64,000 bases of DNA, taken from IMG/VR virus record IMGVR_UViG_3300005337_000002, one strand, 5' to 3'. The translations under genes and the position numbers were made by a program. The notes under the pieces are model-generated. The model saw nothing but the letters and a program-made list of their open reading frames with translations. It had not been told where the DNA came from and made no database searches. Shown here one piece after another: positions 1-52,465 of this stretch (the stretch's first letter is position 1; every line of letters begins with the position of its first letter). This stretch comes from a virus.

Positions 1-172
1 GCGCCTGGAGCGTGTCAATGTGAAAGGTTATAGCGGAAGTCGCATCAGCGCGAGCAATTTCCAGACTGCGGATCTGGGTATCATAGGGAGCAGCAATGGC
101 ATGTACCTGCGCATAGAGGGCCGCGAGTTCCTGGAGGGATTGCAGCATCGCGGTCTCGTCATGGGGTGTCAT
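1..172 (-). CDS. Hypothetical protein, truncated by window edge; possibly related to 22693..23109
   Basis: ATG at 172 overlaps the ParB stop (ATGA). Reads MTPHDETAMLQSLQELAALYAQV...ARADATSAITFHIDTLQA, resembling AARDAGARQFQADIDALAA of 22693..23109. Confidence 0.55.
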   Translation of the reverse strand, partial: MTPHDETAMLQSLQELAALYAQVHAIAAPYDTQIRSLEIARADATSAITFHIDTLQA

Positions 173-3727: not shown

Positions 3728-3741
3728 GCATAGACGTGGGT

Positions 3742-11038: not shown

Positions 11039-11862
11039 GCGGGGGAGGCCTTGCGCCAATAGGCTGGGCGCTGGTTCCAACACTTCGTCGCGATTTTGAC
11101 ATAGCCGTGCTGGCGGAGGCAACTGTTGAAAGCCCGCGAGGCGCTCGCCCCAGGCACGCGCGTGCCCCCGACCTCATAGGTCTCGAAATGCCCGATGGAC
11201 GGGGCGGTGAAGGTATTGGCGATCAGCAACGCCCGTGGCTGACACTGCGTGAGGAGCGTGACGAGATGGTCCACCGGGGCGGGAATGTGCTCAAAATACT
11301 CGCTGGCAAAGACGACATCGACCGGGGACGGAAGCAGGGGAATCTCCGGCACGACCTGGAAGCCAAACTGGCGTCCCATGCGTTCCGCCACCCGTGTTTG
11401 GGTGAGCCCGGGAAAATTGGTGGCCCAGAGGTCGCAGTGCGGCCAGAGCTGGCGGAGCGCGGCGGTCGTGTAGCCGATCCCGCAGCCGAGGTCCACGACG
11501 CGTGTCACCGGGGCGAGGTGCGCGGCAATCCCGGCAGGCGGACAGAGTTTGGCCGGCAGGAGTTGGGCCAGATATTTGCGGGAATAGACGACCCAGCAGG
11601 CCCAGAGTTCCGCGAGATAATAGTCGGCGTCATAGACGGCCCAGCATGGGGTGCCCTGGCGGAGGGAGGCATACCATTGCGCCTGGAGCCGTTGACCGGG
11701 CTCCGTTGCCAGGCGCCCCTGCCCGCTGCTGCGCAGATAGGCAATGGTCTGCAGTGCGAGGTGCCGCACCGTCGTCACGTCGCGCACGCCCACCGCGGCA
11801 CAGTCCTCGAGAAAATGCGCGAATTGCGGCTGCCACTCACCGGTCAGCAGTGTCGGGATCAT
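11035..11862 (-). CDS. Class I SAM-dependent methyltransferase
   Basis: VVDLGCGIGY and DVVFASEYFEHI; no NPPY/DPPY/PC DNA-MTase motif. Confidence 0.8.
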   Translation of the reverse strand: MIPTLLTGEWQPQFAHFLEDCAAVGVRDVTTVRHLALQTIAYLRSSGQGRLATEPGQRLQAQWYASLRQGTPCWAVYDADYYLAELWACWVVYSRKYLAQLLPAKLCPPAGIAAHLAPVTRVVDLGCGIGYTTAALRQLWPHCDLWATNFPGLTQTRVAERMGRQFGFQVVPEIPLLPSPVDVVFASEYFEHIPAPVDHLVTLLTQCQPRALLIANTFTAPSIGHFETYEVGGTRVPGASASRAFNSCLRQHGYVKIATKCWNQRPAYWRKASPA

Positions 11863-32314: not shown

Positions 32315-32802
32315 TGGTTGGCCGTCTTATTGCGCTCAGTCTGCTCAGCCTGTTTCCGCTAGCCTGCACCAGTGTCTTGCAAGGCGAACCCGTCGACCTG
32401 GCTGTGGTCGCCACGCCGACGCCGCCCGCGCCCGCCGTACTCCCTCCGCCCACGCTTGCGCCTGGTCCCACGCCGCCTGCTGGCAGCTTTCGTGCCTGGG
32501 TGCCGCGGGAAGTCACAGCGAATGGCGATGTGATCGACGGACACTATCTCCTTGTCAGTACCGCTCCACCCCCTGCGGAACGCCTCGAACCGCCCGTGCC
32601 AATGCCCCGCATTCCGAAACCCACGCGGGCCAAGCCGAAGCCGCAACCCAAGCCTACCACGCAACCACCGTCCCCCACAGAGTCGATGCCGGGGCCGGTG
32701 CGCCCGGAGGGCCAGCCGCCGCTCCCCTTTGTGTGGGGGGATCGGGCGCAGTTGCCGCCTGGCGTGCTCGTGCCAGTGCCCCATCTTGACGGAGGACGCT
32801 AG
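32314..32802 (+). CDS. traV: TraV-like lipoprotein
   Basis: Lipobox PLAC; FRAWVP...NGDVIDGHYL. Confidence 0.7.
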   Translation: MVGRLIALSLLSLFPLACTSVLQGEPVDLAVVATPTPPAPAVLPPPTLAPGPTPPAGSFRAWVPREVTANGDVIDGHYLLVSTAPPPAERLEPPVPMPRIPKPTRAKPKPQPKPTTQPPSPTESMPGPVRPEGQPPLPFVWGDRAQLPPGVLVPVPHLDGGR

Positions 32803-32806
32803 CCCG

Positions 32807-35386: not shown

Positions 35387-35609
35387 GACAGTGAGGTACT
35401 ATGGCCGCGATTAGCGGGATTCCCACGCGGGCGTTAGCAGAGGCGATTCGGAATCTTCTTGTGGAGCATGGGTATCATCATAGCCTCCGCATCCGGTATC
35501 GCGCGGATCTCCAACTCTGGACGGTGTATGGCTTTGAGTATCGCGGCAAAGATCCTCGCATCAAAGGGTGGGACCGTCGCATGCAAGAAGAGTTAGGGTA
35601 GCGACGCCA

Positions 35610-36080
35610 ATGCATGATCCGCGCCCCGTCAAATTACTCGTACTGCTCTCGCTCCTGAGCCTGTGCTTGCTGGCCGTCTGGTGGGCGTGGCAGGATACGG
35701 GAACGCGGCAGACCATGCTCCTGGCTATCTGGCAGGCCGAGCAGCCGACGACGCTGCCCCCCTCGGCACTCCTGGACCAGGCCCAATGGCTGGTCCTGCA
35801 CCGCTGGGGACACCTGCAAGGGATGGCGCTCCTCCTCGCCACGGCGCTCCTCCTCGGCGTGTGTGAGGGTAGCTGGCATCGGGCGCGCGATCCGCTCGGC
35901 GGTTTTCGCCTGACGCGCTGGACAGTCGGGGTCCTCGGGCTGGCGCTCGGGGTGGGGGCGGTCGCGGGGTATCTGTGCGCCCCGGTGGTCTTGCCGCTGG
36001 GATGGTGTGCAGGGGGATTCGCGGGACTGCTAGGGCTGGTAGGGTTTGCGCTAGCGCACGGCAGGCCATACGTCAGCTAA
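35610..36080 (+). CDS. Transfer-region membrane protein (DUF4400-like)
   Basis: Several TM segments; LGVCEGSWHR. Confidence 0.55.
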   Translation: MHDPRPVKLLVLLSLLSLCLLAVWWAWQDTGTRQTMLLAIWQAEQPTTLPPSALLDQAQWLVLHRWGHLQGMALLLATALLLGVCEGSWHRARDPLGGFRLTRWTVGVLGLALGVGAVAGYLCAPVVLPLGWCAGGFAGLLGLVGFALAHGRPYVS

Positions 36081-36193
36081 ATGCTTGTAGTGTAAGGGGA
36101 AATCGTGTATACTCGGCAGGTCTACAACGTATCGGGCGGATGGGGCGAATCATCCACCCGGATACTTAACGTTGGTCCTAACTAGGAGCACCA

Positions 36194-37093
36194 ATGTCTA
36201 CCGCTATTGTAGCACGTCGCTGCCCGCTCTGCATTAATGATCCTCGCGAGTTTCATGTAAGTTCAAAGCCCTATACAGAGGATTTAACTGGGCAATCATG
36301 TGAACGACTTTCCGTCAATCACTTCGTTGGCTCGAATCGTCATCGGCAAGCCTATTGGTGTTGCTCCTGCCTCTGTGGCGGATCGGCTGTCATCCTTGCG
36401 TATCGCTTCATTCATAAGAAAACACGCTCCTGCGGATGTCTTGTTAAAGAGAATGTCAACGCTGGGCAATTTCAGTCAACGCACGGCATGACCGATACGC
36501 GCATTTTCAAGATATGGAGCGGCATGTTGACGCGATGCTATAACGAAAAGAGTCTTGATTATCCGCGCTATGGGGGTCGTGGGATTACGGTGTGTGAACG
36601 CTGGCGCACCTCCTTTGCCGCGTTCTATGCAGACGTCGGCGATCCGCCTGATGGGATGACAATGGATCGCAAGGACAATATGCGTGGCTATGAACCTGAC
36701 AATATCAAATGGAGTACACCGCTGGAGCAAAGTAATAATAAGCGGAACAACGTCTATCTCGACTATAACGGTGAACGTCATACGATCGCTGAGTGGTCAC
36801 GGCTCATCGGTATTTCCGCTATAACCTTATATGCCAGGAAAGAGCAAGGATGGTCTGATGAAGCTATCCTCACGTCTCCGCTTCGACCTTGTCGCCCACG
36901 AGGCAAGATTGTGCGCACGGGCATCACTCTCACGTTTGACGGAGAAACGCATACCGTTGCGGAATGGGCACAGAAGCTCGGTATGGGCGAAATGACCTTG
37001 CGTTCTCGTCTCAAACACGGGATGCCGCTCACCGAGGCATTAACGCGACCTGTCGCTCCCTATCGTGGAGCCCACCGCCAGAAAGGGCACTAA
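36194..37093 (+). CDS. HNH-type homing endonuclease inserted in the transfer operon
   Basis: CSCLCG, SCGC, W..M..RC, YGGRGI.VCERW, DRKDN..Y.P.N..W, two T.AEW helical repeats; lower GC. Confidence 0.85.
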   Translation: MSTAIVARRCPLCINDPREFHVSSKPYTEDLTGQSCERLSVNHFVGSNRHRQAYWCCSCLCGGSAVILAYRFIHKKTRSCGCLVKENVNAGQFQSTHGMTDTRIFKIWSGMLTRCYNEKSLDYPRYGGRGITVCERWRTSFAAFYADVGDPPDGMTMDRKDNMRGYEPDNIKWSTPLEQSNNKRNNVYLDYNGERHTIAEWSRLIGISAITLYARKEQGWSDEAILTSPLRPCRPRGKIVRTGITLTFDGETHTVAEWAQKLGMGEMTLRSRLKHGMPLTEALTRPVAPYRGAHRQKGH

Positions 37094-37094
37094 C

Positions 37095-38357
37095 ATGACG
37101 GGGTTCTCACCATACAGCGTTGTTCTTGTGAGTGCCATAATGCTTGCACTGCCAATGTCCGTCGCTGCAGATCTCTGGGATACAGCGCGACGGTCGATAA
37201 AAACGGATACGTATGACACTTCGGGCTACGGTATGCGAGGTGGGGTGAATCTCTCGACCGGCACACAGCCAAGTAGTACGACATTATTCCGTGCCACAGG
37301 GCATGTCGGCGGGACGTGTGGCGCGTTCGATTTTGCTGGCAGTCTCAAGGAGGGACTTGAGCAAATTCCTGCGATGATCGAGGGGCTCAGTCAGCAATTA
37401 TTGACTAATATGCCCATGCTTATTCTTTGTTGGGCTAGTCCTACTAGTTGTGACCTCGCGAAGCACTTCCAGGGGCTCGTGTCTGCGGCGATCAATGCCC
37501 GCTATGCCAGTTGTCAGTCCAGTCAGAATGCCGCGATGTATGCGGGGTTACGCTTGCGCGCGGGCGAGGTCTCGCGCTGCTTAGAGGAGCATGCCAATGC
37601 TGGGGATACCATCTCCGAAGCCCTGCGCACCTGCAACAGCGATCCGTCTGACCTACGCGCCCCCGATGGCTCCCGCCGGGTCGAGGTCAATCTGGTCAAG
37701 GATACCCTCGCTGCAGCCGGCGCCAGTACCGAGACGCAAACCCTCGCCCGTGGCTTGCTTGGCGAAGTCACCTTGCGCGCGGGCCAGGGCTATAATGTCG
37801 ACTATAGCCATCCCCAAGCGGCCCTCATGAGCCGCTACGAGAGCCATAAGGCGGATGCCGATGCGGCCCTGCGCCAGGCGGTGACGGAACTGCAACAGAC
37901 GGGGGCTATCTCACCCCAGACGCTCCAAGACGCCTCTGTCCCCGGTCAGTCCCTCCCGCGCGCGGCCCTCGATGCCCTCGTGACGCTCCAGGCCGACCCG
38001 GTGCGCTACGAAGCGCTCCTCGGCAAGCTCAGCACCGGCATGGCCCTGACACGGCTCACGTGGGACTGTAGCGAGTTGCAAGAGACGCTGATGGCCGCCG
38101 CCCAGGGCAACGCGCACCTCAGTGACGAAGAGCGCCGGGTGCTGGAGCAGAAGTATCAGTCCGTGCAGCGAGCATTGGCGCAACTCATGGCGAAAACGGA
38201 GGTGCTGGAGAAGAGCTATCAACCGGCGGTCGATGCCCTCTTGCGGGAATACACGGCCACGCAAGAGCAGGCCATCCGCCTCGGCATCACCGCCCCGACA
38301 CTCACCACGCCGCCCATGCCCTTTCGCGGGGCAGGGCCAGCGGGCTATGGAAGGTAG
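37095..38357 (+). CDS. Exported conjugative protein (TraH / PFL_4711-like)
   Basis: Signal peptide, TCGAFDF, PMLILC...P..CDL...ASCQ. Confidence 0.65.
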   Translation: MTGFSPYSVVLVSAIMLALPMSVAADLWDTARRSIKTDTYDTSGYGMRGGVNLSTGTQPSSTTLFRATGHVGGTCGAFDFAGSLKEGLEQIPAMIEGLSQQLLTNMPMLILCWASPTSCDLAKHFQGLVSAAINARYASCQSSQNAAMYAGLRLRAGEVSRCLEEHANAGDTISEALRTCNSDPSDLRAPDGSRRVEVNLVKDTLAAAGASTETQTLARGLLGEVTLRAGQGYNVDYSHPQAALMSRYESHKADADAALRQAVTELQQTGAISPQTLQDASVPGQSLPRAALDALVTLQADPVRYEALLGKLSTGMALTRLTWDCSELQETLMAAAQGNAHLSDEERRVLEQKYQSVQRALAQLMAKTEVLEKSYQPAVDALLREYTATQEQAIRLGITAPTLTTPPMPFRGAGPAGYGR

Positions 38358-38362
38358 TCACT

Positions 38363-39859
38363 ATGGATTTTCTGGTGTTGTCGCTCCCGGAGGCCGCATT
38401 TTTGTACACTGGGATTGCCCTGCAGGCCATGCTGCGCTCGTCAAAACTTATCGCCCTTGTCTATGCGATCATCACGATCTCGGTCTTCGTGCTCCTGTGG
38501 CGCGGCCTCGGCTCGGTCTGGTTCTGGAAGCCGGTGGCGGGCTATCTCGGTACGACGGGCCTGATCCTGGTGCTCTTTTGGCCGGAAGCGCTGCGGTTTG
38601 GGCATCTGTCGGCCCGCGCCACCGATGCCACCCAGATTGCGTCCTATGCGGCGAGTCAGGACCCCGACGCCGAAGTCGTGACGGCGGCGGAGACGCAACT
38701 GGTCCTGCCCGCGCTCCAAGACCCGGTGCTCGTCCCTGTGGGTTTTCGCCTGCTCTTGCGGATGACGACGGGGCTCTCCCTCACCATCGGGCGCATCCTG
38801 AATGACCAGGAACATCGCACGTTTGGCATCTTGACATCGATGGGGTGGCTGCTCGGCGTTGAACTCACCGCGCCCGTCAGTAACGCGATTCAGGACTGGA
38901 CTCTTAACTGTTTTACCCCCATCTGGACCACGACACTGGAAGCCCAGCAAGCCGTGACCGCGCACGATCTCTTGCCGTGGGATAACTCCCCTGTCGCGCA
39001 AGCGCTGAATACGCGCGAGGTGCGCCCTGGGGCACAGAGCGGGATTACGTGGCTGCAAGGCAGTACGCCGACTGCCACGGTGAAATGCGATACCTATCTG
39101 GCGGCGGTTGAAAGTGACACGCAAGCCTGGCTACGACAACTGAAGAGCCCGCGGGGGACCCCGCTGCTCCAAGTGTTTGAGGAAGACCTGGGGCTGACCC
39201 CGATCCAGCAAGCGCGCTTTCTGCTCTACCGCGAGATCCTGCGGACCATGCAGGGCCCCGTCCCGGCACCCAGCCTGCTGGGCACCTACGCCGCGATTCG
39301 GGGAGCAGGCATTGCCGGCAGGGCACTGGATCAAGGCAGCTTCACGGGCATCGTGGGGCTCCTCAGCGGCACCTTCTCCTGGGCGAAGACGCTCTTTGCC
39401 GCCGGGCGGGGGGCGGGCGCGGGGGTGAGTGCGGAATTTCAGCGCACGGTGGAGGGCTTGAGTCACTACGTCGGCTTTGCGGTGCTGCTGACGTGGGTCG
39501 CGCCCTACGTGCTCGGCATCGCGAATCTGGTGCTCGTGGGGCTGTTTCCGCTGCTGCTGCTCTTTCTGCTCATCCCCGGGCATCAACTGGAAGGGTTGCT
39601 CCTCTATGTCGCCATCTTGCTCTTTACGACGGCGGCCCCGCTGTGCTATGCCCTGGTCGATGTGTCGCAGCGGCTCGCGGGCAGTCTCGCACCCCAGTCC
39701 ACGGATGCGGTCTTTGGGGGCTTGAGCAATGGCGCGACGGCCTTTGTCTGGAGTACGATGGCGACGATTGTGGGCCTGCTCGTCATTCCCGTCACGCTCG
39801 CGTGGCTCTTGTTTAAGACGTTTCGGGCGGCCAGCAGTCTGTGGCGCCCTAGCATCTAG
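38363..39859 (+). CDS. traG: TraG N-terminal-like mating-pair membrane protein
   Basis: N- and C-terminal TM clusters; periplasmic DW..NCF.P...C segment. Confidence 0.65.
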   Translation: MDFLVLSLPEAAFLYTGIALQAMLRSSKLIALVYAIITISVFVLLWRGLGSVWFWKPVAGYLGTTGLILVLFWPEALRFGHLSARATDATQIASYAASQDPDAEVVTAAETQLVLPALQDPVLVPVGFRLLLRMTTGLSLTIGRILNDQEHRTFGILTSMGWLLGVELTAPVSNAIQDWTLNCFTPIWTTTLEAQQAVTAHDLLPWDNSPVAQALNTREVRPGAQSGITWLQGSTPTATVKCDTYLAAVESDTQAWLRQLKSPRGTPLLQVFEEDLGLTPIQQARFLLYREILRTMQGPVPAPSLLGTYAAIRGAGIAGRALDQGSFTGIVGLLSGTFSWAKTLFAAGRGAGAGVSAEFQRTVEGLSHYVGFAVLLTWVAPYVLGIANLVLVGLFPLLLLFLLIPGHQLEGLLLYVAILLFTTAAPLCYALVDVSQRLAGSLAPQSTDAVFGGLSNGATAFVWSTMATIVGLLVIPVTLAWLLFKTFRAASSLWRPSI

Positions 39860-39873
39860 CGGAGGAGAGCGTC

Positions 39874-40608
39874 ATGGCCTTTGAGGAAGTAATTTTTGGA
39901 CAGTGCCGACTGATACGCGGGGATTGCTATGTCCTGCTTGCCGACATACAGGCCGATGCACTGATTACCGATCCGCCCTATGGGATGGCCTTCAATTTTC
40001 GGCAGGTAACGTCCCCTGACCTTCGGCGCAAGAGTCACCCCCCCCATGGACGCCATAGCTACAGTGCTGGTCGGGCATGGCAGGACAATATCCACGGCGA
40101 TGCATCCCCGTTCGATCCCACACCCTTCTTGTGGTTTCCACAGATCATTTTATGGGGTGCGCACCATTATAGTGCTGCCTTGCCGTCGAGCCCAAGCTGG
40201 CTCCTCTGGGACAAGCGTGTGGGAACCGCCTCAGATCATCATGGGGATGCGGATATGGCATGGACCAATCTTGGCGGCTGTATTCGCGTCCACCGGCAAC
40301 TCTGGCGAGGGCTCATTCGGGCAGGTGAGGAAAATGGGAGTCGTGACGGCAAGCAGCATCCAGGACAAAAACCGTTAGCCCTTATGCGGTGGTGTGTCGA
40401 AAAAACACGAGGGATAGTCTTTGATCCCTTTGCCGGATCGTTCACCACGGCTCTCGCATGTTTCCAACTGGGACGACCCTGCATTGCTATCGAAATTGAC
40501 CCTTATTATTTTGACATAGGCTGCCGTCGTCTCGAAGCCGCCTACGCCCAGCTAGGGTTGTTTCTTCCGCAACCCATCGTACATCCCACGCAAGCAACCT
40601 TATTCTAA
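39874..40608 (+). CDS. Beta-class N4/N6 DNA methyltransferase
   Basis: ITDPPYG...HPGQKP...VFDPFAGS...IEID. Confidence 0.92.
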   Translation: MAFEEVIFGQCRLIRGDCYVLLADIQADALITDPPYGMAFNFRQVTSPDLRRKSHPPHGRHSYSAGRAWQDNIHGDASPFDPTPFLWFPQIILWGAHHYSAALPSSPSWLLWDKRVGTASDHHGDADMAWTNLGGCIRVHRQLWRGLIRAGEENGSRDGKQHPGQKPLALMRWCVEKTRGIVFDPFAGSFTTALACFQLGRPCIAIEIDPYYFDIGCRRLEAAYAQLGLFLPQPIVHPTQATLF

Positions 40609-40796
40609 AGGAGATGCTCGATGTGGCAATTCTGTGTGCTTCTGTTTCTGCTCGCCGGGCTCGTGGCCCTGCTCCCCAATCTCTGCCTGCTCGGGATGTT
40701 CCAGGGCTGTCGTGCCTGCCATAGTCTCATGCGGCGCGGGGCGACGAAGTGCCCCCACTGTCATACGCCGTATCGCACACCTGCCAAGGTGGCCGC

Positions 40797-42074
40797 ATGA
40801 GGGGTCTCCTGCTCGCCTGCCTGCTCTTCCCTACCTCGACTCTTGCGGGGTCGTTCATTCTCAGCTGGGACACTCCGCTGGACTGGCAACCGCGCGTGCA
40901 GTATCGGCTCCAGATCGTCACAACCCAGGCCGGGCGGGCGGTCCAACAGACCCAGACCCTTGCCGCCTTCCCGGCAGGCCAGTGCGCCCAGTGGCCGGAT
41001 GCCCAGCGGACGCCAGAGAGTCTCTGTAGCGAGGTGTGCCTTGAACCAGGGGATTACTCACTCACGCTCCAAGCCGCGACAGATCTGGCGAGTGACTGGT
41101 CAAACGTGCTCGATGTCGATCTGACGAGTACCGGCCCGTGTCATCCCGTGCCGGTCGTGCCGGTGCCCCCCCAAGCCAAGAAACCGATCCCCATCCCGCT
41201 CGTGCCCATCCCACTCCCGACAGCGCCCGCACCGTCAGCGCCGACTCTGACGTCGCTGCTCAATATGGGCTGCGTGAGTTGGAAAGTGACGGGCGTATGC
41301 ATGTGTAACCCCACCACGCCCTGCCTCACATTAGAATATTGGGAACCCCGCTATGTGGTCGAGACGGTGAAATCCCCCGGGGATACGGTCGTTCCGCTCC
41401 TGGGCGATGTGTTGCGCGCCGTCCTCAGTACCACCGGCGCCCCAGCCATCGGCGGCGGCGGCAGCGCCAATGCGAGCGGCAGTGGGCACACGAACCTGTC
41501 GTACAATGAGACGCATATCTACAGCCTGCCCAACCTCTTCGGCGGTCCCTGTACCGCCTGTGCGCCCAGCGGCGGCTTTGGTCTGAACTACGCGAGTGAA
41601 CTGGATGCCCCCGGCTGGCGCATCGATGTATCCGTGCCAACCCCCTATGAGTTGCTCTTGCAGGTGGGGACCTGGGGACGGCTCTACCCACGGTCGGGCA
41701 AGGTCATTCATGGCTCGCCACCGGTCGCCAGCGCACTCACCGCCGTGCGGGCGCTCGACATTATACGCCAACCCATCGGCGTGCCGCCCAACGTCGATGC
41801 GCATGTCGTGACGCAACCCGGTGATGCCGGGACCCCCGCGTGCATGCAGATGGGCTATCCGCGCCAACTCCCCTGCTTCCCCGCGGGCACGCCGAATGCC
41901 CTCTGGGAAACGGGCACGGGGAGTCTGACGGGGCGGTACGCATGGACCATTTGGATCAAGCGGAGTTGCTGTACGAACCCTGCGACGTCGACCTGCGGCA
42001 TTGCGACCCCTGGAATAGGCGGCACCGGCCAGAACGTGTGTCTCTTGCCGCAACTCCCCAGCGTCTTACCTTAA
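40797..42074 (+). CDS. traU: TraU-like protein with extra N-terminal beta domain
   Basis: CVSWKVTGVC, YWEP...VE, NYASELD..GWR, TWGRLYPRSG, YAWTIW...CC. Confidence 0.85.
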   Translation: MRGLLLACLLFPTSTLAGSFILSWDTPLDWQPRVQYRLQIVTTQAGRAVQQTQTLAAFPAGQCAQWPDAQRTPESLCSEVCLEPGDYSLTLQAATDLASDWSNVLDVDLTSTGPCHPVPVVPVPPQAKKPIPIPLVPIPLPTAPAPSAPTLTSLLNMGCVSWKVTGVCMCNPTTPCLTLEYWEPRYVVETVKSPGDTVVPLLGDVLRAVLSTTGAPAIGGGGSANASGSGHTNLSYNETHIYSLPNLFGGPCTACAPSGGFGLNYASELDAPGWRIDVSVPTPYELLLQVGTWGRLYPRSGKVIHGSPPVASALTAVRALDIIRQPIGVPPNVDAHVVTQPGDAGTPACMQMGYPRQLPCFPAGTPNALWETGTGSLTGRYAWTIWIKRSCCTNPATSTCGIATPGIGGTGQNVCLLPQLPSVLP

Positions 42075-42090
42075 CACGAAAGGACTGTCT

Positions 42091-43710
42091 ATGCCCTTGC
42101 CCTTTGCGGTTCGCTGGCCCGTCTGTGTCCAGCGCTGGCTCGGCCTGCGCGTCTCGCGTCTGCCGGGCCGTCTTGCCACATTTGGCGTCCCGTGGCCGTC
42201 CCTGCCCCGAAGTGCTGCCAGCTATGAGCGCCTGTTCTACCAGACCTGTGAGGTCCGCATTCCCGCCACGGCGCATGGCTTCCATTGCCCGTGGACCACG
42301 CTCAGCATTGAAGTCTTTCTGTGGGCGCCGGAGGACCAACGTTGGGTCGAGGCCTCGCTCGCCGTCAACATGGGGCTTGCGCCTGACCGTACGCTCTTTG
42401 TGCGGTTCCATACCCCCCAGAGCGGCGTCGTGCGCCTCCTTGCCGTGCGCGGGCAACTGCATGGCCCGCTCCATACGATGCTCCCTGGGATGCCTGGGGA
42501 ACGCTAGAAAGAATGGTCTATGCAACTCACACTTGATCTGTCTGAGCATGTCATTGAAACCTTGCGAACGTTGGCGATCCAGCGCCATTGCACGACCCCC
42601 GAGATCGCGACGGCGTTGCTTACGCAGGCGGCTTCTGTCGATGCGCCCTCCCTTGATGCCGCGCTGCCTGCCAGGGATGCGGGCATTCTGCTCGATCCAG
42701 CCGCACGGGCTTTACTTCGCGAGCACCATCTGAGCCCAGCCGATCGCGCTTTCCTGAATCACGTGATTGATCTTTGGAATGTCTACGCGCTCGGGAGCCA
42801 ACAGTCTCCCGTCAGTTTCTTCGCGCAGTTTCTCACGGACCAGGCGTGCATGATGATGGCCACGCAGTATCCTGGCGATCTGGACAAGATTGCACAGGCG
42901 GCAACCGTTCTCACGCGCTTGGTCGAGCAATTACTTTGGGCGAAGATCACCCTCACGAATGGCTTTCGTCGCCCACTGCCGGAGGAATTGTCATGATATG
43001 CTCCCGCTACGTACTTGCCCTCGGTCTACTGACACTCGCGACGCCTGCCGTCCATGCCCAACCCCTGCCCTGTGCCCTGCAGGCCTTCTTTGAGTCCGTC
43101 TGCCCCGAGGGGTCAACGTCTGTTGCGCCTGTCCCTGCGGCCCCGCCCGCGCTCCTGCCGCCCCTGTTTCCGAAGGAGACGCTCGCGCGGGATATTCCCC
43201 CGCTGATGGTGACACTGCTCGATGCCCCCACCCCCGAGAACGCTCGCGCCTTCCAGGCCTGGCATCGGCGCCGACTGGCCCGTATTCAGGAGGTCAATCG
43301 TCTCCTGCAATCCCTTGAACCTGTCCCCCAGAAAGAGGTGCCTGATGCCCAGCTCCCGCGCTGAGAAAGCGGCGCCCGCCCGGTGGACTGCCTGGCAGGC
43401 CGCGCGTCGTGCCCAGGGCGTCTTATCCGCCCGAGCCGCCGCCCAGGACTACACCGCGCTCCAGGTCCAACCCCCGCTGCGCGCCACGTTCTTTGTGATG
43501 CTGGATCTGCTGAGTGCCCGGCATAAGTGGCTGCAGCGGCTCGCCAGGCTGCACGCCGATCCGGCCTTCACCGCGTCCCTTGAGGAGGTGGAGGTCGCGT
43601 GGCAGCGGTGGGAGCAGTGGACCCGGCACTTTGCGGCCACGCTGACCCATCTCACCGCTGATCATCCGACGGGCCTGCCGCTGGAGGAGGACCCGCCCGA
43701 TGCCGACTAA
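42091..43710 (+). other. Four small transfer-region genes: 42091-42507, 42520-42996, 42993-43364, 43345-43710
   Basis: Closely spaced or overlapping ORFs. 42993-43364 has a signal peptide and LDAPTPENARAF, like the TraF N-terminus. Confidence 0.55.
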
Positions 43711-45520
43711 GCTGCTCGTGCGCGCCATACTCCTGGCGAGTCTCGCATGGCTCTGGCTGTGTGTCTCTTTCGTCGTCCCGCTGCCGCCCGCGTATGCGGC
43801 TGCTCCGCTCCAGACTCCGGTCGACCTGCTGGCGCTGACCTGGCTGGTCTGGCGCCTCCTGCTCCTGGATCGCACCTGGCATACGTGGCGCGCGTGGCGG
43901 GTCTCGCCTGCCCCCTGGGTCCTTGCCGCGACCGCCTCCCCGTGTCTCACAGACGGCCTGCTGCTCGGCGAGGCGTTTGCGTGGACGACCGCCCAGACCC
44001 ACGCCCTCGAAACCTTCCTCGTGGATGAAGAGACGCTCCCGGTGGCGACAAGCGCCCGCGGCGGCCATCCGGCCCTCCATGCCGTTGGGGCCGGCGCTGT
44101 CCAGCTCCTCCCGCTCCCGTGGTCGGAACTCGTCGGCCAGGTCGGGGTCCTGGGGACGACCCGCAGCGGCAAGTCCACACTGCTCGAACTCCTGATGACG
44201 CACGCCATCCGGGCCCGCCACGGCCCGGTCATGGTGCTGGATCCCCGCGGCAGTCGGACGTTGCTTGCGCGCTGTGCCCTCGAAGCCTACCGGATTGGGC
44301 GGCCCTTTGCGGTCATCGCCCCCGCGTTCCCGGCCCAGTCGGCCACGATGAATGTGCTGGACACCGCGACCTCCCCCGTGGAAGTCTCCTCGCGCATCAA
44401 TGCCCTGATGCCCAGCGGTGGGGGGCGCACGACGGATCCCTTCTTTGAACAATATCCGCTGGCCCTGATTGAGCGGATCGCCACCGCCCAGCAGGCGCTG
44501 GGCCAGCCCTGGACGCTCGAAGGGCTCTACAAAGCCTCGGTCCTGCCGCAGCATGCCGAGCGCTTGCTCATGGACTACCTCGTGCATCTGGGCTGCACGC
44601 GCACCCCCACGCTGCAGCCGATGAAGACCGAGTATTTTCGGAAGCATATGCATGACCTCACTGCCGATGCCCTCATTGCGGATCAGGAGCGCAACCGGGA
44701 CCACTTTGCCAAGGTAACGGCCAATCTCATTCCCGCCTTTCGCGGCGTCGTGCATGCCCCGTTAGGGCCGCTCTTCTCGACGGTCCCCGGCGATCTCACC
44801 TGGCAGACGATTGTCGAGAAGGAGATCGTCGTGTATGTGGCCCTGGCGAGTATGCTGCTTGGCGACATTGCGAACCGCATCGGGCGCGTCATCCTGCAAG
44901 ATCTCATCGGCTATCTGGGCCGGCGGGACGCCTATGCGGATGTGCGTGCCGCCGTGCCGATCACCGTGCTGATTGATGAGGTGGGGGATGTCGTCTTTCC
45001 GCTGTTCACCAATGCCCTCAATAAAGGTGGCGGGGCGAAAGCCCGGTTTGTCATTGCCATGCAGTCCCATGCGGATCTCGACGCGAAGGTAGGCCGGGAG
45101 GAGAGCCGCCGCATTCGGGACAACCTCAATACCCAAGTGACCTTTCGTCTGACGGATGATCGCACCGCGACGGACGTGGCCGAGGGGTATGGCGTCTGTA
45201 CAGTGCAGGTGCCGGAGACCGGGGTGGGACTGACGGTGGGCGGTGGTGGGGGACTGACCGGCAGTGCCCATCGGCGGCTCGTGCAGCGAGAGGTACCGCG
45301 CGTGCGGAGCAACTGGCTCAAGGCGTTGCCACGGGGCGAGGCGTTTGTGCGGCTCAAGGGTGAACTCTGGAAAGCGCGCATCCCCATGCTTACCCCAATC
45401 ACCTCTGACGAACTCGATATGCTCGGACTCACGACACTGTGGAACAGTCTTGCGCCACAGTCCCCTGCTTCTCCAACAGAAGGGAGTGATGTATGCGACG
45501 ACTCAGTAGTCTCTTGCTAG
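43700..45520 (+). CDS. traD: Type IV coupling protein (TraD/VirD4)
   Basis: Walker A GTTRSGKS, VLDPRG, Walker B LIDE, LNKGGGA...AMQS. Confidence 0.92.
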   Translation: MPTKLLVRAILLASLAWLWLCVSFVVPLPPAYAAAPLQTPVDLLALTWLVWRLLLLDRTWHTWRAWRVSPAPWVLAATASPCLTDGLLLGEAFAWTTAQTHALETFLVDEETLPVATSARGGHPALHAVGAGAVQLLPLPWSELVGQVGVLGTTRSGKSTLLELLMTHAIRARHGPVMVLDPRGSRTLLARCALEAYRIGRPFAVIAPAFPAQSATMNVLDTATSPVEVSSRINALMPSGGGRTTDPFFEQYPLALIERIATAQQALGQPWTLEGLYKASVLPQHAERLLMDYLVHLGCTRTPTLQPMKTEYFRKHMHDLTADALIADQERNRDHFAKVTANLIPAFRGVVHAPLGPLFSTVPGDLTWQTIVEKEIVVYVALASMLLGDIANRIGRVILQDLIGYLGRRDAYADVRAAVPITVLIDEVGDVVFPLFTNALNKGGGAKARFVIAMQSHADLDAKVGREESRRIRDNLNTQVTFRLTDDRTATDVAEGYGVCTVQVPETGVGLTVGGGGGLTGSAHRRLVQREVPRVRSNWLKALPRGEAFVRLKGELWKARIPMLTPITSDELDMLGLTTLWNSLAPQSPASPTEGSDVCDDSVVSC

Positions 45521-45870
45521 CGCTGGTCCTAGTCGGGTGTATGGCAACCGGGACGAAGGTGACGGAAGTCCAACTCGAGCAGTTTCAGCCGGGGTACAGC
45601 ACCTATCAGGACGTCATTGGAATGCTCGGCCCGCCGAATCAATCGACCCTACACAGTGATGGCACGCGCGAGGCGATCTATACCTACACGCAGATGCAAC
45701 TGAAGCCGCTGAACTTTGTGCCCATCCTTGCGGCTTTCACTCAAGGGAGTACCGCCGAAACCACGACGGTGACGTTACTCTTTGATGCGCGGGGGATGCT
45801 TGCCAGCTTCAGCGCGGCCCAGGGACAGACGACGGTGGGGACGGGGTTCGTGTCAGGGGGGCGGCAGTAA
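45493..45870 (+). CDS. BamE/SmpA-like lipoprotein
   Basis: Lipobox LVGC; G.ST..DV...LG.P. Confidence 0.75.
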   Translation: MRRLSSLLLALVLVGCMATGTKVTEVQLEQFQPGYSTYQDVIGMLGPPNQSTLHSDGTREAIYTYTQMQLKPLNFVPILAAFTQGSTAETTTVTLLFDARGMLASFSAAQGQTTVGTGFVSGGRQ

Positions 45871-45871
45871 T

Positions 45872-46744
45872 TCAAGCGCCCACATAGGCTTTGACTATTT
45901 CCAGTCGGCAATGACCAAGTTCTTCGGACAGAATCGACCGCGCATCCTGGTCCCGCTCTCGCTGCTCTGGGGTCAAGTCCCTATGGCTTGGCCCGCCCGC
46001 CACTGGACACAGAAACCCCGTCAACTCCAGAAACCGCCGCTGGGCATACGCATGCCGCAGGCCGTGCATATTGTGCAGCCCCACGCGCTTCACCCAGTCG
46101 TCATAGCGGTAGCGTTGTTGGATATACGTGCGATGCGTGGGGATGAGCGACGCCTCCTTGCTCGGGAGCGTTTGCTTGAGCCGGTCGAGGACCTCGCGTT
46201 GCGCGGCGGTCGCAATGGGAATCTGGCGCGGGCGTCCGCCCTTGGTCCACGAGCCTTGCAGCACCAGGTACTGCCCCTGATCCGCCTGCCACAGGCGTAT
46301 CTTGATGCTCTCCTCCCGGCGCAACCCAAAGGCCCGTTGGAGTTCGAGGGAGGCTCGCACCCAGCGATCCTGTACGCGCATGAGGACATCATTCGGGACC
46401 GTCTGCGCTTTCGAGGTCTTGGCCACGAACTGCCGCGGGGGCAGGGCATAGATCGCGTTGTCTTTGGGCAGGATACTCACCCGATTGATCTTGTGTGCCC
46501 ACCAGCGGAGAACGCTCAAGCGGTTGCGAATGGTGGCGCCGCTCAAGCCTTGCGTGTGCCAGAGCGCGAGGAGCTTGTCGATATGCCGGCCCTTGAGGTC
46601 CGTGGCGTGCAAGTCTTTATAGCCAAGGTGGATCAGTTGGTCGGCCATCTGCGCCAGGATCGTGCGCCGATTGGCCTGGGTCATGAAGGAACCATCGCGG
46701 TTGCGCTTGGTGAGTTGGACGAGTTCGTAGGTGAGTTGCTTCAT
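45872..46744 (-). CDS. Tyrosine recombinase (Integrase_1-type with N-terminal SAM-like domain)
   Basis: RNRDGSF.TQ, FGLRREE, TKGGRPR, HGLRHAYAQ, ELGH...AY; R-K-HxxR-H-Y set present. Confidence 0.92.
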   Translation of the reverse strand: MKQLTYELVQLTKRNRDGSFMTQANRRTILAQMADQLIHLGYKDLHATDLKGRHIDKLLALWHTQGLSGATIRNRLSVLRWWAHKINRVSILPKDNAIYALPPRQFVAKTSKAQTVPNDVLMRVQDRWVRASLELQRAFGLRREESIKIRLWQADQGQYLVLQGSWTKGGRPRQIPIATAAQREVLDRLKQTLPSKEASLIPTHRTYIQQRYRYDDWVKRVGLHNMHGLRHAYAQRRFLELTGFLCPVAGGPSHRDLTPEQRERDQDARSILSEELGHCRLEIVKAYVGA

Positions 46745-46968
46745 GCGAAGCCCATATCAGGGGCAGGGCATGGCTGCCCGTCGTGCGTCTGATAGCGTTC
46801 CTGTTCGATCGTCATATTGACGGTCGCCATATCGCGCCAGATGCGATAGGGTGGGCAGGGATGCCACTCGCCTGCATCGTTGCGCTGGAACACAATACCG
46901 TGTTGCTCCCACCATGCACGATGTGCGGCCTCGTCTAGTCGTAATACTCGCATGTCACGCTTGCACAT
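46741..46968 (-). CDS. Small hypothetical protein coupled to the recombinase
   Basis: ATGA overlap with the recombinase start. Confidence 0.4.
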   Translation of the reverse strand: MCKRDMRVLRLDEAAHRAWWEQHGIVFQRNDAGEWHPCPPYRIWRDMATVNMTIEQERYQTHDGQPCPAPDMGFA

Positions 46969-46999
46969 CGTCACTCTGATATACATATAGAGTGTTGGA

Positions 47000-47558
47000 G
47001 TCTTATCGAGGTCGCTTCCCACGGTCGTCCGTGTGGTCAGTGTCGGTGGGCACCGCATACGGTCTCTCCTATGCAGTCTCAAGTCTTGCCCGTGTGGGAA
47101 TAGGGTACGCTGGTCCCCGCAGGTGGTATGCCGTCGCCGGCACCGGGTCTCGTCAGGAGACGCCGCAGCGTGTCTATCACAACCATCTATGTCAAATAGC
47201 CAGGGGGTCCCGTCCCGCAGCGGGCTATGAAGCGCTGCGGGACAGTCCTACGTTCGGATGGAACGATGCGTCTTCCTCTGCCTCGTTTCTGCGATACGAG
47301 ACGGTCATCGTGAGCCCAGATGTGGGGTACATAACCCTCGCAGAGCGGAAACCTCATCAGTCCTCCGTCGACCGATTTCTGATGGGGACAGACGCAGACG
47401 CGAAGCAGGGATGCGATGCATCCAGACATCTCGCTTTGCAGCGAGGGCAGGCCCTTCCGTGCGAGAAGGGCAGTCCGAAGCCCACCTTCCTCACGGCCTC
47501 GGCGTGTTAGGGGTCAGCCTAACAATTGGCAGGAGGATAGTGGAAACAACTGTTACTG
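47000..47558. other. Long structured non-coding region (candidate oriT or ncRNA)
   Basis: Many stems: GTCCCGCAGCG/CGCTGCGGGAC, TGCGTCT/AGACGCA, TCTGCGA/TCGCAGA, GCCCTTC/GAAGGGC, TGTTAGG/CCTAACA. Confidence 0.55.
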
Positions 47559-47822
47559 TCAAGCATGAGGAGTGGTCTGTGAGGCATCGATCCTATAGAA
47601 TGGAGGGGTGTGTCGTATCCGCGGCCTCCATGGCGTCTCCTGTGCGGGCAACACTTCTCTCCCCCGCGCAATGAGCGCAGCAATATCGTCCTCATCAAAG
47701 CCCAGTTTGCGGCCGAGTTTAACTGCCGGCAGTCCTAGCCGCACCCGAAACCGCTTATCGGCAAGACTGCGAGGCGAGAGACTCAGTCGCTCTGCAGCCT
47801 TTTCGAGTGTGAGAATCGCCAT
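47559..47822 (-). CDS. Excisionase-like HTH protein
   Basis: LTLEKAAERLSLSPRSL...LPAVKLGRKLGFDEDDI; AAGGAG RBS. Confidence 0.8.
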   Translation of the reverse strand: MAILTLEKAAERLSLSPRSLADKRFRVRLGLPAVKLGRKLGFDEDDIAALIARGREVLPAQETPWRPRIRHTPPFYRIDASQTTPHA

Positions 47823-48399
47823 GTAATACTCCTTCTATTTCAGAGTTGATTTTTTGGTATCTCCTCCGCAGTGACGCGGCAGGCCAGCGCAGGGCTTCCC
47901 CCGCGCCAGGCCACGCGTGCGCGCCGATCCATCCGCGACATCTCAGCGGGATCGGCGCAGACAGGACGTCGGGCATCACCCCCTCTCAGTCTCCGCTCAG
48001 GGTATATTCCAGCACCCGTCAGGTTTGGACTGGCAATCAAAGAGACGCTCATCCAAATGACGAGGTACATAGTCACGCAGCATCACCTCCTCTCAGGGAC
48101 ACACTCAAGGTATTGCCTGTGGGAGCTTGCCGTCATCACCATCACAGACAATAGTTTCGCCAACAATATGACACCCACGTTCATGTCGCATCACCCCCTT
48201 TCAGCGCGCCGCGGCACGTCGGTCCGCCACGTACGCAGCTGGCGCACCCAGCGCTCCTCGTGCTCCAATGCCCCCTCGACCCAATAGGTCAGACGATGCC
48301 GCGCCAGCGTCTGCAGCACCCGCTGCCAGGTCGGTCGCGGATAGTGCGTCGCTGGATGGGCGCAGGAGCGCTGGACACATTTCTTGGCTTGACGGCGTT

Positions 48400-48813
48400 T
48401 CATGGGGTGGCTCCTGGCGACGTACACACCCACCGGGGCGCACGATACGTACAGTCAGCACTTCCCGTAACGGGCGGCATGGGCGTCCCACGCTGCACGG
48501 CCGCTTGGTACGTCTGAGCATCGAGGAGGACGGTGATCGCGGCAAACGTGCCAGCGACCGTGGCATCCACATCCAGGCGCCCCACCAGCGTATCGGCCTC
48601 GTGTAGATGGCGCACCACGGCACACGCGCCGGCCCGCTGGGGCGAGACGATCACGGCATAATGCAGGACACCCGTGGCCGTCGTCTCCATCAGGCAGGTT
48701 TGAGGCAGCAGTAGGACACGCTGGGGCAGAACCGGCCAAAGCCAGGTCGCCGCAAACACGGGGGCAAGGCCCAAGAGCGCCAGCACCGTGAGGGCACGAA
48801 AGAGGGGGATCAT
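48400..48813 (-). CDS. Membrane or exported hypothetical protein
   Basis: N-terminal hydrophobic segment. Confidence 0.5.
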   Translation of the reverse strand: MIPLFRALTVLALLGLAPVFAATWLWPVLPQRVLLLPQTCLMETTATGVLHYAVIVSPQRAGACAVVRHLHEADTLVGRLDVDATVAGTFAAITVLLDAQTYQAAVQRGTPMPPVTGSADCTYRAPRWVCTSPGATP

Positions 48814-49020
48814 GGCCCCTCCTGCACGATAAACACAGCAAACGCAGTGCGGAAGACCGCGAGGCGCGCCTCACGCGCACCGGCGGTTTGCAGACCCCCA
48901 CGCCGTTTGGCCTCGACCAGACACACGGCGGAGCACGCGGTATGCCGGAATCCGCCATAGGGCGCAGGCGCGGGGGCACGGACACCACAGCCCTCGCATT
49001 TGTAGGTCGCGACAGGCTGG

Positions 49021-50353: not shown

Positions 50354-52465
50354 TCACGCGTCCTCCTTGCTCGGGGGCGCGCCTAGGGGCAGCGCGGAGA
50401 GCTGGCCCGCGGTCGTCCCGTAGCCGGTGTCGGCCAGCGCGGTCAGGCTGTGCCCAAACGGGCCCCCCGCCGTCGTACGATAATGGAGACCGCCGCGCTG
50501 GCCCGTCCCGACGATATCGGCATACGGCGGGGAACTCACCGCACAATCGAGCTGGCCTGGGGGCATCGCGGCGAGTTGGCCCGGGGACGATCCATACCCG
50601 CGCGGGTGGTTGATTTGGGAATTTTTCCCAGTGGTGCCGCCAGACCGGCGCGGGCGAGAGGTGCGCTGTCTGCGGTCGGCAATCGACGTCCTCTCGTCTT
50701 GCCCATGGAAACTCTCGGCATAGGGCGGTGAGCTGATCGTGCACGCACACCCCTGGAGGAGCGGCAACTGTTGCCAGGCGTCCTCGGGCGGCAGGGGCGC
50801 GGGCTTGCGCATGCAATAGACCGTCTCCCATGCAATCGCGAGGTCCGGACGCTTCCGTTCATGCAGGCGGCGGAAGAAGGAGATGCGCTTGGTCTGGAGT
50901 GTCTCGGTCGAGGGCGTCGGGGTATAGCGCCCGGTGGTGTGGAGCGGCGCGCAGAGACTGTCGCCCTCAGCGTCGGTCCAGTGCATATCCGCGCCGTCCT
51001 GGGAAAAGAGCGTCTCCTGCGTGCCGTACTCCTCGGTCAGCACGGCGTGGTGCTCGTGGAGGGTCTCGAACCCGACACTTTCAGCGGCGAGGCGCCAGTC
51101 GCCAGGAAAATCGACGATGGTCCCGTCACGACAATAGCCTTTGACCACCCACAGCGCGTGGCCGCCTGGCCGCACGACGGCAAAGGTTTGCCGCAGAATC
51201 TGCACCGCTGCAGACCAAAAGGTGGTCGGCGCTGCGGTGCCGAGCTGCCCCGGACTGGCCCCATATGTCTGTGCCGCTATGCCCCCGACGCCATGCGTGC
51301 CAAACGCGGCTTGCTGCGTGCGGTCGCGGCGGCCCCCGTCCACCTTCGACCAGTCAATCGCATCCCGCGTGTCATTGAGACTGGCCGCGTAGGGAGGTGA
51401 GGACACGAGGCAGTCGGCCACCGGCATGGTTCCTAACTGCCCCGGCGAGTCGGGATAGTGATAATCCCCTTTGTTGCGGTCAGCACTTTGGCCAGTGGCG
51501 CGTGTCCCAGCACCAGCGCCGAGCTTTGTTGGCTTGGTATCCGTATTAGAAAAGGGGGGAGATGAGATCAGGCAGTCGGCCACTTCGCCCGTCGCCATGT
51601 TCCCGAGTTGCGCCGGATCACTGCCGTAGTACGGGTCCACGATGCCCTTGTCGTGCATGATGCCACGGTGACTATCCTTGTCGCGCTTGGCGTGGTCGGC
51701 GTAGGTATGTTCTTTGCCAAGGCCGTGGGCATAGGGCGGACTACTCACGCAGGCCGCAACCTGCCCGGCCAGCACCTTCTCCAACTCCCGACTATCGCCT
51801 CGCAGCAGCACGGCGCCCGTGTGGCCCTGCGCCGCCCAGGTCTCCAGATTGCCCTGGTAGTGATGCGGCCCACTCGACGGAATCGTGCCGCTGTTGTGGG
51901 CATAGCTCGTCGTCGTCACGGCAAAGAGCGTCGCCACCGGGCCATGGGGCGGTGGACGCACGCCATCCTGCCGATCTGGCAACGGCAGCGGCAGAAACGG
52001 CACGGTCCGCTGCCGCACGCGCTGGCCCGGTTTGGGCCGCGTCCGAAAGGTGCGGCGCCGGGCCACGGGCAGGCCGGTGCGCTGGGACGCCTGGGTCAGA
52101 CAGCGCGGACACCAGTAGTGACCGTCTGCATAGCGCAGGCGTGTCCAGCGGCCATAGCAGCGCACCCAGTCCGCCTTGGTGATGCCGGTACAGTCACAGC
52201 CGGTGCCGAGATCATTGAAGGGTTGCTCCAACTCCACGCCGATCCAGCGACAGCCGAGGGCCATGGCATCCCAGGCGCCGAGGCCGACCCCCCCGAAGGG
52301 GTCAACAATGGTCGATCCCGGGGCAAGCCAGCCTTCGGCCGCCGCATGCGCATAGATGTGCTGAATGAGCGCCCGTGAGAATTTCGCCGGGTGCCCGAAG
52401 GCTTCTGGGACAATGTGCTGCCAACTGCTGCTGTACAACGATCGCCACACCGTTACGTCAACCAT
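50354..52465 (-). CDS. DNA methyltransferase (N4C-type SPPY) with five catalytic-motif cassettes
   Basis: HPAKF, VDPFGGVG, GVELE, GDSR. SSPP(Y/F) at 51731-51745, 51551-51565, 51389-51403, 50720-50734 and 50522-50536, each followed by Y(G/P)xxx(G/A)QL. Confidence 0.88.
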   Translation of the reverse strand: MVDVTVWRSLYSSSWQHIVPEAFGHPAKFSRALIQHIYAHAAAEGWLAPGSTIVDPFGGVGLGAWDAMALGCRWIGVELEQPFNDLGTGCDCTGITKADWVRCYGRWTRLRYADGHYWCPRCLTQASQRTGLPVARRRTFRTRPKPGQRVRQRTVPFLPLPLPDRQDGVRPPPHGPVATLFAVTTTSYAHNSGTIPSSGPHHYQGNLETWAAQGHTGAVLLRGDSRELEKVLAGQVAACVSSPPYAHGLGKEHTYADHAKRDKDSHRGIMHDKGIVDPYYGSDPAQLGNMATGEVADCLISSPPFSNTDTKPTKLGAGAGTRATGQSADRNKGDYHYPDSPGQLGTMPVADCLVSSPPYAASLNDTRDAIDWSKVDGGRRDRTQQAAFGTHGVGGIAAQTYGASPGQLGTAAPTTFWSAAVQILRQTFAVVRPGGHALWVVKGYCRDGTIVDFPGDWRLAAESVGFETLHEHHAVLTEEYGTQETLFSQDGADMHWTDAEGDSLCAPLHTTGRYTPTPSTETLQTKRISFFRRLHERKRPDLAIAWETVYCMRKPAPLPPEDAWQQLPLLQGCACTISSPPYAESFHGQDERTSIADRRQRTSRPRRSGGTTGKNSQINHPRGYGSSPGQLAAMPPGQLDCAVSSPPYADIVGTGQRGGLHYRTTAGGPFGHSLTALADTGYGTTAGQLSALPLGAPPSKEDA

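Follow-up and report, generated by a model that had tools for sequence, protein, structure and literature searches.

The gene at positions 45872-46744 of the window (the whole stretch of viral DNA analysed here, 64,000 nucleotides in length) encodes a tyrosine-recombinase-like protein of 290 aa, which is probably a relaxase of the MOB_M type (MpsA family) that starts conjugative transfer through the F/SXT-like type IV secretion system (T4SS) encoded by the same element. This reading is based on family membership, the catalytic residues and the fold of the protein, on the failure to find a further relaxase or recombinase on the element, on the linkage of the gene to that of the coupling protein (T4CP), and on a conserved hairpin and motif. 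The original prediction that this family supplies transfer initiation here is supported by the computational checks that were run, which revealed neither a second recombinase nor an att-like boundary, and we consider it likely to be correct.

A circular phage genome that encodes a T4SS

The window corresponds to the reverse strand of bases 14842-78841 of a 141,598-bp IMG/VR record, which is circular (99-bp terminal overlap). Phage genes located outside the window encode a portal protein, a Mu-F-like protein, an HK97-type capsid protein, tail fibres, a tape-measure protein with an SLT domain, and a J-like tip protein of 1871 aa, and the window itself contains a terminase-like gene and primase genes, one of which has a DUF3987 domain. 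The predicted presence of a T4SS and a coupling protein was confirmed by the identification of TraB/TrbI-like, TraC/VirB4, TraG_N, TraU, and TraD proteins. The features of the window that are relevant here are as follows.

169-927, minus strand: ParB-like gene
31061-42074, plus strand: T4SS core, whole span
31061-32314, plus strand: TraB/TrbI-like (VirB10-like) protein
32552-35386, plus strand: TraC/VirB4; TIGR02746 (TraC-F-type), 1e-61
37065-38357, plus strand: conserved 430-aa protein
38363-39859, plus strand: TraG_N protein
40749-42074, plus strand: TraU
43700-45520, plus strand: TraD coupling protein (T4CP), 606 aa; TrwB_AAD_bind, TraG-D_C and SXT_TraD (5.2e-73)
45493-45870, plus strand: BamE-like lipoprotein, 125 aa, end of the T4SS operon; Pfam BamE 4.6e-4, below cut-off
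45872-46744, minus strand: tyrosine-recombinase-like protein, candidate MOB_M (MpsA-type) relaxase, 290 aa; PF12834 and PF12835

The T4SS is of the F/SXT-like type, as its TraC matches the TraC-F-type model at 1e-61 versus 7e-13 for PFL_4706 TraC, and its coupling protein matches SXT_TraD at 5e-73. The recombinase gene is convergent to traD, and it had been correctly described as lying next to it: the only gene between them is that of the 125-aa BamE-like lipoprotein. A gene for 125 aa occupies this place in L091 and L176 as well, and there is a tblastn match in L090/G025. It had also been placed away from any att boundary, and this holds as well, considering that element genes lie on both sides of it and that the record is circular. 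The same flanking by element genes on both sides is observed in L091-L094 and L176.

A second IMG/VR record of 98.9 kb (G025) has tail genes in common with this phage (a J-like protein that is 50% identical, a tape measure protein, and a fibre) and also contains the whole T4SS and the recombinase at 38-46% identity (38-44% for the T4SS core proteins). No homologue of this phage's terminase could be detected in G025, although the tail and T4SS genes have one. Because the tail module, the T4SS, and the recombinase are all common to the two records, the combination of phage and T4SS has been inherited and does not result from a chimeric assembly. No match to plasmids was found when positions 43000-49000 were searched by megablast.

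Domains, fold, and family of the 290-aa protein

As predicted, the protein is a tyrosine recombinase without an arm-binding domain. Its 290 aa hold only a core-binding domain (approximately residues 1-90) and a catalytic domain (approximately residues 118-290), according to both Pfam matches (PF12834, Phage_int_SAM_2, residues 1-82, 9.5e-15, above the gathering score; PF12835, Integrase_1, residues 122-235, 7.4e-14, 52.4 bits against a cut-off of 23) and an AF2 model computed with an alignment of homologues as input (mean pLDDT 92.4). The best structural matches of this model are IntI4, lambda Int, XerH, Tn1549 Int, and Cre, with TM scores of 0.53-0.58 over both domains; the structural alignments have 12-19% identity, and the context of the gene in the window is conjugation, in contrast to the att, dif, or lox sites of IntI4, XerH, Cre, and the lambda Int core. 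The family profile matched no PDB sequence at E<=0.01, and NCBIfam models yielded only faint XerC/XerD similarity.

The catalytic set R143, K168, H227, R230, H278, and Y287, which includes the nucleophilic tyrosine, is invariant among 20 homologues with 50-91% identity, and the ORF displays a strong third-position bias (GC content of 0.77). Considering this strict conservation and the excess of synonymous over non-synonymous changes in comparison with L091 (52 versus 27), the recombinase gene is not decayed. The family comprises more than 7000 detected homologues, of which almost all are 288-290 aa in length and almost all contain PF12834 and PF12835; longer forms fused to a helicase, a primase, or a T4CP were not found in the family, which is weak evidence. 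The protein is an intact, divergent, two-domain tyrosine-recombinase fold that lacks an arm-binding domain.

The second arginine and the tyrosine of the window protein are separated by 57 residues, compared with about 32 residues for the same gap in Cre or XerD, and H227, R230, and H231 form an H-x-x-R-H motif. In MpsA, the corresponding residues are H247, R250, H251, and Y319 (PMC9299015). PF12835 has been used by Burrus and colleagues as the signature for the MpsA-type 'INT_DTR_like' relaxase (PMC10484663), and a class MOB_M, seeded with TcpM, MobK, and MpsA and tied to ICEs, has been defined in a 2026 preprint (10.64898/2026.01.13.699239). Judging from the PF12835 signature and the catalytic motif, the 290-aa protein can be assigned to this MOB_M (MpsA-type) family. 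As PF12835 is the very signature for MpsA-type relaxases, the original prediction had underestimated how close the link to MpsA is. The three characterised members, MpsA, MobK, and TcpM, all lack a core-binding domain (PMC8152469), a trait that does not extend to the window protein with its PF12834 domain and two-domain model. The lack of this domain describes three characterised proteins and not necessarily the whole MOB_M class.

Search for other relaxases and recombinases on the element

The original prediction was also based on the absence of a relaxase from the 64 kb of the window, a claim that holds and can be extended to the entire circle. In a six-frame search of all 141,598 bp with six Pfam relaxase models (PF07514, PF08751, PF03432, PF03389, PF01076, and PF02486, which cover MOBH, MOBF, MOBP, MOBQ, MOBV, and MOBT), no match was obtained at E<=1. 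Neither PF00589 nor PF00239 had a match elsewhere on the circle. Numerous large ORFs of the element could not be assigned to a family; ten of these had no NCBIfam match, and hence there is no relaxase model among them. Two other proteins were considered and rejected as relaxases. The ORF at 924-1793 on the minus strand has a PD-(D/E)XK domain and might be MOB_C-like, but no more than roughly 150 of its residues are credible and it is missing from the relatives that share the T4SS, and the 703-aa protein at 50354-52465 on the minus strand is methyltransferase-like instead. As far as can be judged from these profile searches, the 290-aa protein is the only candidate transfer-initiation enzyme found on the 141.6-kb circle.

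Genomic context of the gene in relatives

In all ten of the closest sampled lineages with enough flanking sequence (44-91% identity), the gene is located beside traD of the same T4SS. The two genes are convergent in the window, L091, L175, and L176 and arranged in tandem in L092, L093, L094, L097, L099, and L090 (L095, a contig of 4.5 kb, comes from the same 91% relative as L091), and the linkage between the recombinase and traD has thus survived an inversion. A separate PF00589 integrase is present in L092 and in the P0046 contig. No member of the phage clade (at least 56% identity) was found among the 80 best genome loci, all of which have identities of 54% or less.

A similar association was observed in bacterial genomes. 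At 24 of the 58 genome loci with at least 9 kb of downstream sequence, TraD is encoded 3-7 kb downstream and in the same orientation, and the gene heads the T4SS operon in these ICEs of the PFGI-1 class. The gene order of one such locus, L071 (ParB, STY4528, PFL_4669, ParM-like, STY4534, recombinase, PilL2, TIGR03759, transglycosylase, TraD, and TIGR03747), identifies it as a PFGI-1-class ICE. The ICE homologues are 288-290 aa long and 48-54% identical to the window protein, and MOBH TraI is missing from 22 of the 24 host genomes of these ICEs (present in the other two). A tRNA gene lies within 1.5 kb of the family member at 14 of 166 loci, with another gene intervening at 13 of them. These 13 loci share the order recombinase, a gene of approximately 1.3 kb, and tRNA; they resemble a mobilisable island, and by its position the 1.3-kb gene could be a separate integrase. 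A tRNA-Ser gene upstream of the family member in L103 is a one-off and was rejected as a feature of the family. A blastn search of E. coli genomes with a Klebsiella family locus gave no match.

Family members are also found on 227 plasmids, 132 of which had been typed as 'non-mobilizable'. The four genes of pSIO1 (4906 bp) are the family member, a T4CP gene, a 73-aa ORF, and one hypothetical gene. Because a tiny plasmid that pays for a T4CP needs a relaxase and there is no other candidate on pSIO1, the family member is its relaxase candidate. An Acinetobacter plasmid of 5.2 kb encodes RepM, an 82-aa ORF that overlaps the start of the recombinase, and the family member. Taken together with the ten lineages and the PFGI-1-class ICEs, pSIO1 bears out the expected co-occurrence of this family with T4SS or T4CP loci devoid of a canonical relaxase.

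The upstream region and a candidate oriT

The features upstream of the recombinase gene are listed below.

47559-47822, minus strand: HTH_17/excisionase-like DNA-binding protein, 87 aa; Pfam HTH_17 3e-4, below cut-off
47534-47562, minus strand: sigma-70-like promoter toward the recombinase; TTGACA, 17 nt, TATCCT
47059-47558, minus strand: non-coding leader of about 500 nt between the HTH_17 gene and the small ORF; no convincing ORF
47187-47243, minus strand: candidate oriT core, consisting of a hairpin, 10 nt, and the motif GGCTATTTGACATAG
47029-47076, minus strand: conserved hairpin 2 (47053-47076, loop GGAGAGACC) followed by the tail CCCACCGACACTGACCACACGG
46741-47058, minus strand: possible 105-aa ORF; GGAGAG before the start, stop overlapping the ATG of the recombinase (ATGA)

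This region had been described as about 500 bp of nested inverted repeats, which holds only in part. A stretch of this length without a convincing ORF does exist, and the inverted repeats identified are one perfect 11-bp repeat and the conserved hairpin 2. Part of 46745-47558 may be occupied by the 105-aa ORF and thus be coding. Besides the window, this ORF was found only in L091 (74% aa identity; 12, 16, and 32 differences at the three codon positions) and had no Pfam or PHROG match. As its ATG lies inside the conserved hairpin, it is maybe a recent extension.

The promoter has 10 of 12 matches and is the only such site in 46600-48000. The HTH_17 protein has a PHROG excisionase match (5.7e-6), its gene is conserved in L091 only, and the protein is possibly a regulator or an accessory factor. 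In a pairwise alignment judged by eye, the leader is about 98-99% identical to that of L091, and divergence is visibly greater in the genes on either side (91% for the recombinase protein). Since the HTH_17 gene beside the leader is equally conserved in comparison with L091, the leader is perhaps part of a recently exchanged segment. As an RNA (477 nt), it has a fold z-score of -2.5.

The perfect 11-bp inverted repeat (47233-47243 and 47212-47222) encloses a 10-nt centre with the loop CTTCATAGCC, compared with 0.08 perfect hairpins of at least 8 bp expected by shuffling, and GGCTATTTGACATAG follows at 47187-47201, 10 nt past the hairpin. Six diverged relatives have the same succession of hairpin, spacer, and motif upstream of the gene; the stems are perfect over 8-12 bp in L092, L093, L094, and L176 (0.1-0.2 expected per 700 nt) and contain one mismatch in L090 and L177. 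The stems of different lineages show no sequence relationship, and loop lengths range from 6 to 14 nt; L092 has the same loop as the window (TTCATAGCC). Given these differences, the data are better explained by a hairpin that is extruded or single-stranded and has a conserved flank, as is known from classical oriTs, than by a duplex core site. The hairpin together with GGCTATTTGACATAG is a reasonable candidate for oriT or for a leader RNA, and the TTGACA within GGCTATTTGACATAG could equally be the -35 element of a promoter. Hairpin 2 has nine pairs, five of which display compensatory changes in an alignment of six lineages, and the conserved tail after it ends with CACTGACCACACGG. In relatives, hairpin 2 and its tail are located 58-77 nt before the ATG, and the window lineage carries an insertion of about 265 nt there. 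We tentatively place oriT inside 47029-47243, an assignment that is quite possible but falls somewhat short of being probable.

In SGI1, an essential small RNA is encoded between oriT and mpsA (PMC9299015), and part of the leader may by analogy act as an RNA. An Rfam scan of the leader (46500-48200) and of one upstream region from the ICE clade revealed nothing relevant. The ICE clade has a conserved AAAGGAGGTG at -213, with no ORF after it. A covariance model (R1) for the structured element that precedes the gene in ICE/IME members had marginal matches only in L097, L099, and L175 and none in the window, which is a point against the relaxase reading, and homology between the window leader and this ICE/IME element is accordingly not claimed.

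If the protein acts as a relaxase, it would bind the upstream non-coding site, the best candidate being the hairpin plus GGCTATTTGACATAG at 47187-47243. Y287, aided by R143, K168, H227, R230, and H278, would nick one strand near the hairpin and remain covalently bound to it. Enzymes of this superfamily become covalently joined to DNA when their tyrosine attacks the scissile phosphate, and the resulting phosphotyrosyl link is normally to the 3' end. The resulting nucleoprotein would pass to TraD, which is encoded next door, and then be exported.

Alternative roles of the protein

An ordinary phage site-specific recombinase, responsible either for multimer resolution or circularisation in a Cre/Xer-like manner or for lysogenic integration with the HTH_17 protein as excisionase, would make the adjacency of traD incidental; we regard this as unlikely. 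Several observations are in keeping with it and count against a relaxase: with a full core-binding and catalytic fold and all of the catalytic residues, the window protein resembles a complete simple recombinase; its gene is the sole recombinase-like gene of the element, and a temperate phage or phage-plasmid may have to integrate or to resolve multimers; the ParB-like gene at 169-927 on the minus strand suggests plasmid-like maintenance; and an excisionase-like HTH_17 gene lies just upstream. However, this gene is not conserved together with the recombinase, whereas the linkage to traD has been kept in ten lineages despite an inversion, and the family member is paired with a T4CP on pSIO1. 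The ordinary-recombinase reading also fits less well with the separate PF00589 integrase present in L092 and the P0046 contig, with the internal position of the gene at the head of the T4SS operon in ICEs, with the further gene that precedes the tRNA at 13 loci, and with the absence of the phage clade from the 80 best genome loci, so that there is no integrated member there. Arm-binding phage or ICE integrases of the lambda/P4 type have a domain that this protein lacks and occupy a boundary, att site, or tRNA, at none of which the gene is located. The 11-bp inverted repeat with its 10-nt centre superficially resembles a recombination core site, one copy of which per element would suffice. Xer/Cre core sites have fixed arms and a spacer of 6-8 bp. 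With arms that change and a centre of 6-14 nt in relatives, such a fixed duplex site is less likely than a hairpin, though conceivable.

It is far less probable that the protein is an Rci/shufflon-like invertase or switch recombinase, or a decayed or regulatory protein, while another relaxase initiates transfer or the T4SS moves no DNA. Tyrosine recombinases beside conjugative pilus genes do exist, as in the case of Rci of IncI plasmids, and the large ORFs that have no family assignment, including the one with a PD-(D/E)XK domain, could leave room for another enzyme. Nevertheless, neither inverted sites in multiple copies nor a second copy of the repeat at 47212-47243 was found in the 64-kb window, the conservation described above argues against decay, the PD-(D/E)XK ORF is short and missing from relatives, and a dedicated TraD argues for DNA transfer. 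A MOB_M relaxase therefore remains the preferred explanation of the gene.

Comparison with known systems and implications

Among the closest parallels is MpsA of SGI1, a MOB_M system that also includes MpsB, oriT, and the sgm-sRNA. The window protein is likened to MpsA by signature and motif: they have in common the PF12835 signature (PMC10484663), the H-x-x-R-H motif, and a second arginine that is widely separated from the tyrosine. In SGI1, oriT and a functional non-coding region are likewise located upstream of mpsA on the same strand (PMC6414798, PMC9299015). However, MpsA has no core-binding domain and needs a separate MpsB, whereas PF12834 is built into the window protein and no mpsB-like gene lies downstream; moreover, SGI1 borrows the T4SS of IncC plasmids, whereas this element encodes its own. 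MobK (pIGRK) and TcpM (pCW3) are also tyrosine-recombinase-like relaxases, set beside the window protein here by description, and differ from it in having no core-binding domain. Nicking of oriT by MobK depends on the catalytic tyrosine and Mg2+, with oriT upstream of the gene, and MpsA, MobK, and TcpM have no significant sequence similarity to one another (PMC8152469).

The MOB_M relaxases of MPF_G ICEs (such as SGI-4) are comparable to the homologues that head the PFGI-1-class T4SS operon, and the proportion of T4CP-linked loci (41% of genome loci with enough flank) is comparable to the 44% associated with MPF_G ICEs in the preprint (10.64898/2026.01.13.699239). By contrast, the T4SS of the window is F/SXT-like, and the structured element upstream of ICE/IME members is not detectable in it. 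MOB_M has been found almost only in chromosomes (10.64898/2026.01.13.699239), and the window element differs from these hosts in being an extrachromosomal phage-like circle. The enzyme class itself is not new; the unusual aspect is that a subfamily with two domains apparently works for an F/SXT-like T4SS carried by a tailed phage.

The family escapes standard relaxase typing, as reflected by the 132 carrier plasmids called non-mobilizable and the 22 ICE host genomes that lack MOBH TraI, and its recognition therefore changes predictions of which elements transfer. If the relaxase reading is true, an otherwise relaxase-less conjugation system on a tailed-phage genome would be completed, allowing spread by both infection and mating, a combination in one element that is not described in the accessible part of a 2025 review of plasmid mobility. 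It is also possible, with slightly less confidence than for the location of oriT, that the element represents a lineage of temperate tailed phages or phage-plasmids which spreads both as virions and by conjugation through its own T4SS, with the MOB_M relaxase acting at the hairpin and motif. The two-domain subfamily would also be a tractable model for how 3'-phosphotyrosyl recombinase chemistry leads a DNA strand through a T4SS.

Conserved structured element upstream of the recombinase gene

Immediately 5' of the gene for the tyrosine-recombinase-like protein, a non-coding element is conserved in 105 of 153 loci, all of them ICE/IME members (L008-L174), and its end carries an invariant CAGAAACACTNACC.

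about -250 to -20 from the recombinase ATG (example L071:9731-10000, in a PFGI-1-class ICE): structured upstream element of ICE/IME loci

Its structure was examined in an alignment of 44 diverse sequences (A7), which supports nine helices, a pseudoknot included, with 33 pairs. Pairing reached 91%, compared with 27-50% when the partners were slid, compensatory changes were found at 25 of the 33 pairs, and none of 500 shuffled controls did as well. Because of its G-U pairs, the structure is specific to the sense strand. No Rfam match was detected for this element, which may correspond to the sgm-sRNA of SGI1 or represent a single-strand oriT in folded form.

Among closer relatives with traD adjoining, the covariance model of this element gave marginal minus-strand matches (E 0.06-0.09) at L097:2393-2514 and L099:1471-1566, both ending in AAACACTNACC and lying just past the 3' end of the recombinase gene, on the strand opposite to it. 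In another such relative, the recombinase gene is directly followed by:

L094:7726-9138: TROVE (Ro60-like) gene

The family also occurs on two very small plasmids, both typed as non-mobilizable by MOB-suite: pSIO1 (NC_006860) has the family gene, a coupling protein and little else, and Acinetobacter plasmid NZ_CP089049 has the family gene, RepM, an overlapping 82-aa ORF and little else.

A tailed-phage genome with its own T4SS

Several further features were identified on the complete phage record (G000, 141,598 bp).

G000 695-2074 (-): Gp3-like recombination-directionality-factor domain protein, 459 aa (domain match 2.8e-33, L002)
window 10124-11122 (-): TET-associated glycosyltransferase (TAGT; match 8.7e-43)
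window 3602-3735: pair of 53-nt direct repeats (96% identity, 81 nt between them)

The Gp3-like protein has a counterpart of 56% identity in a second viral record, G025; a serine integrase was not found on the G000 element. The TAGT gene adjoins a terminase-like gene, an arrangement that hints at phage DNA hypermodification. The repeats lie immediately downstream of primase/DUF3987 genes (window 4263-6782, -); they have an iteron-like appearance and may mark a replication origin.

G000 encodes a portal, an HK97-type capsid, a tape measure, a J-like protein and fibres, together with a full F/SXT-like T4SS including TraD. Since tail genes and T4SS are both shared with G025 (L180-L184; 38-50% protein identity), the combination of tailed phage and T4SS is inherited.
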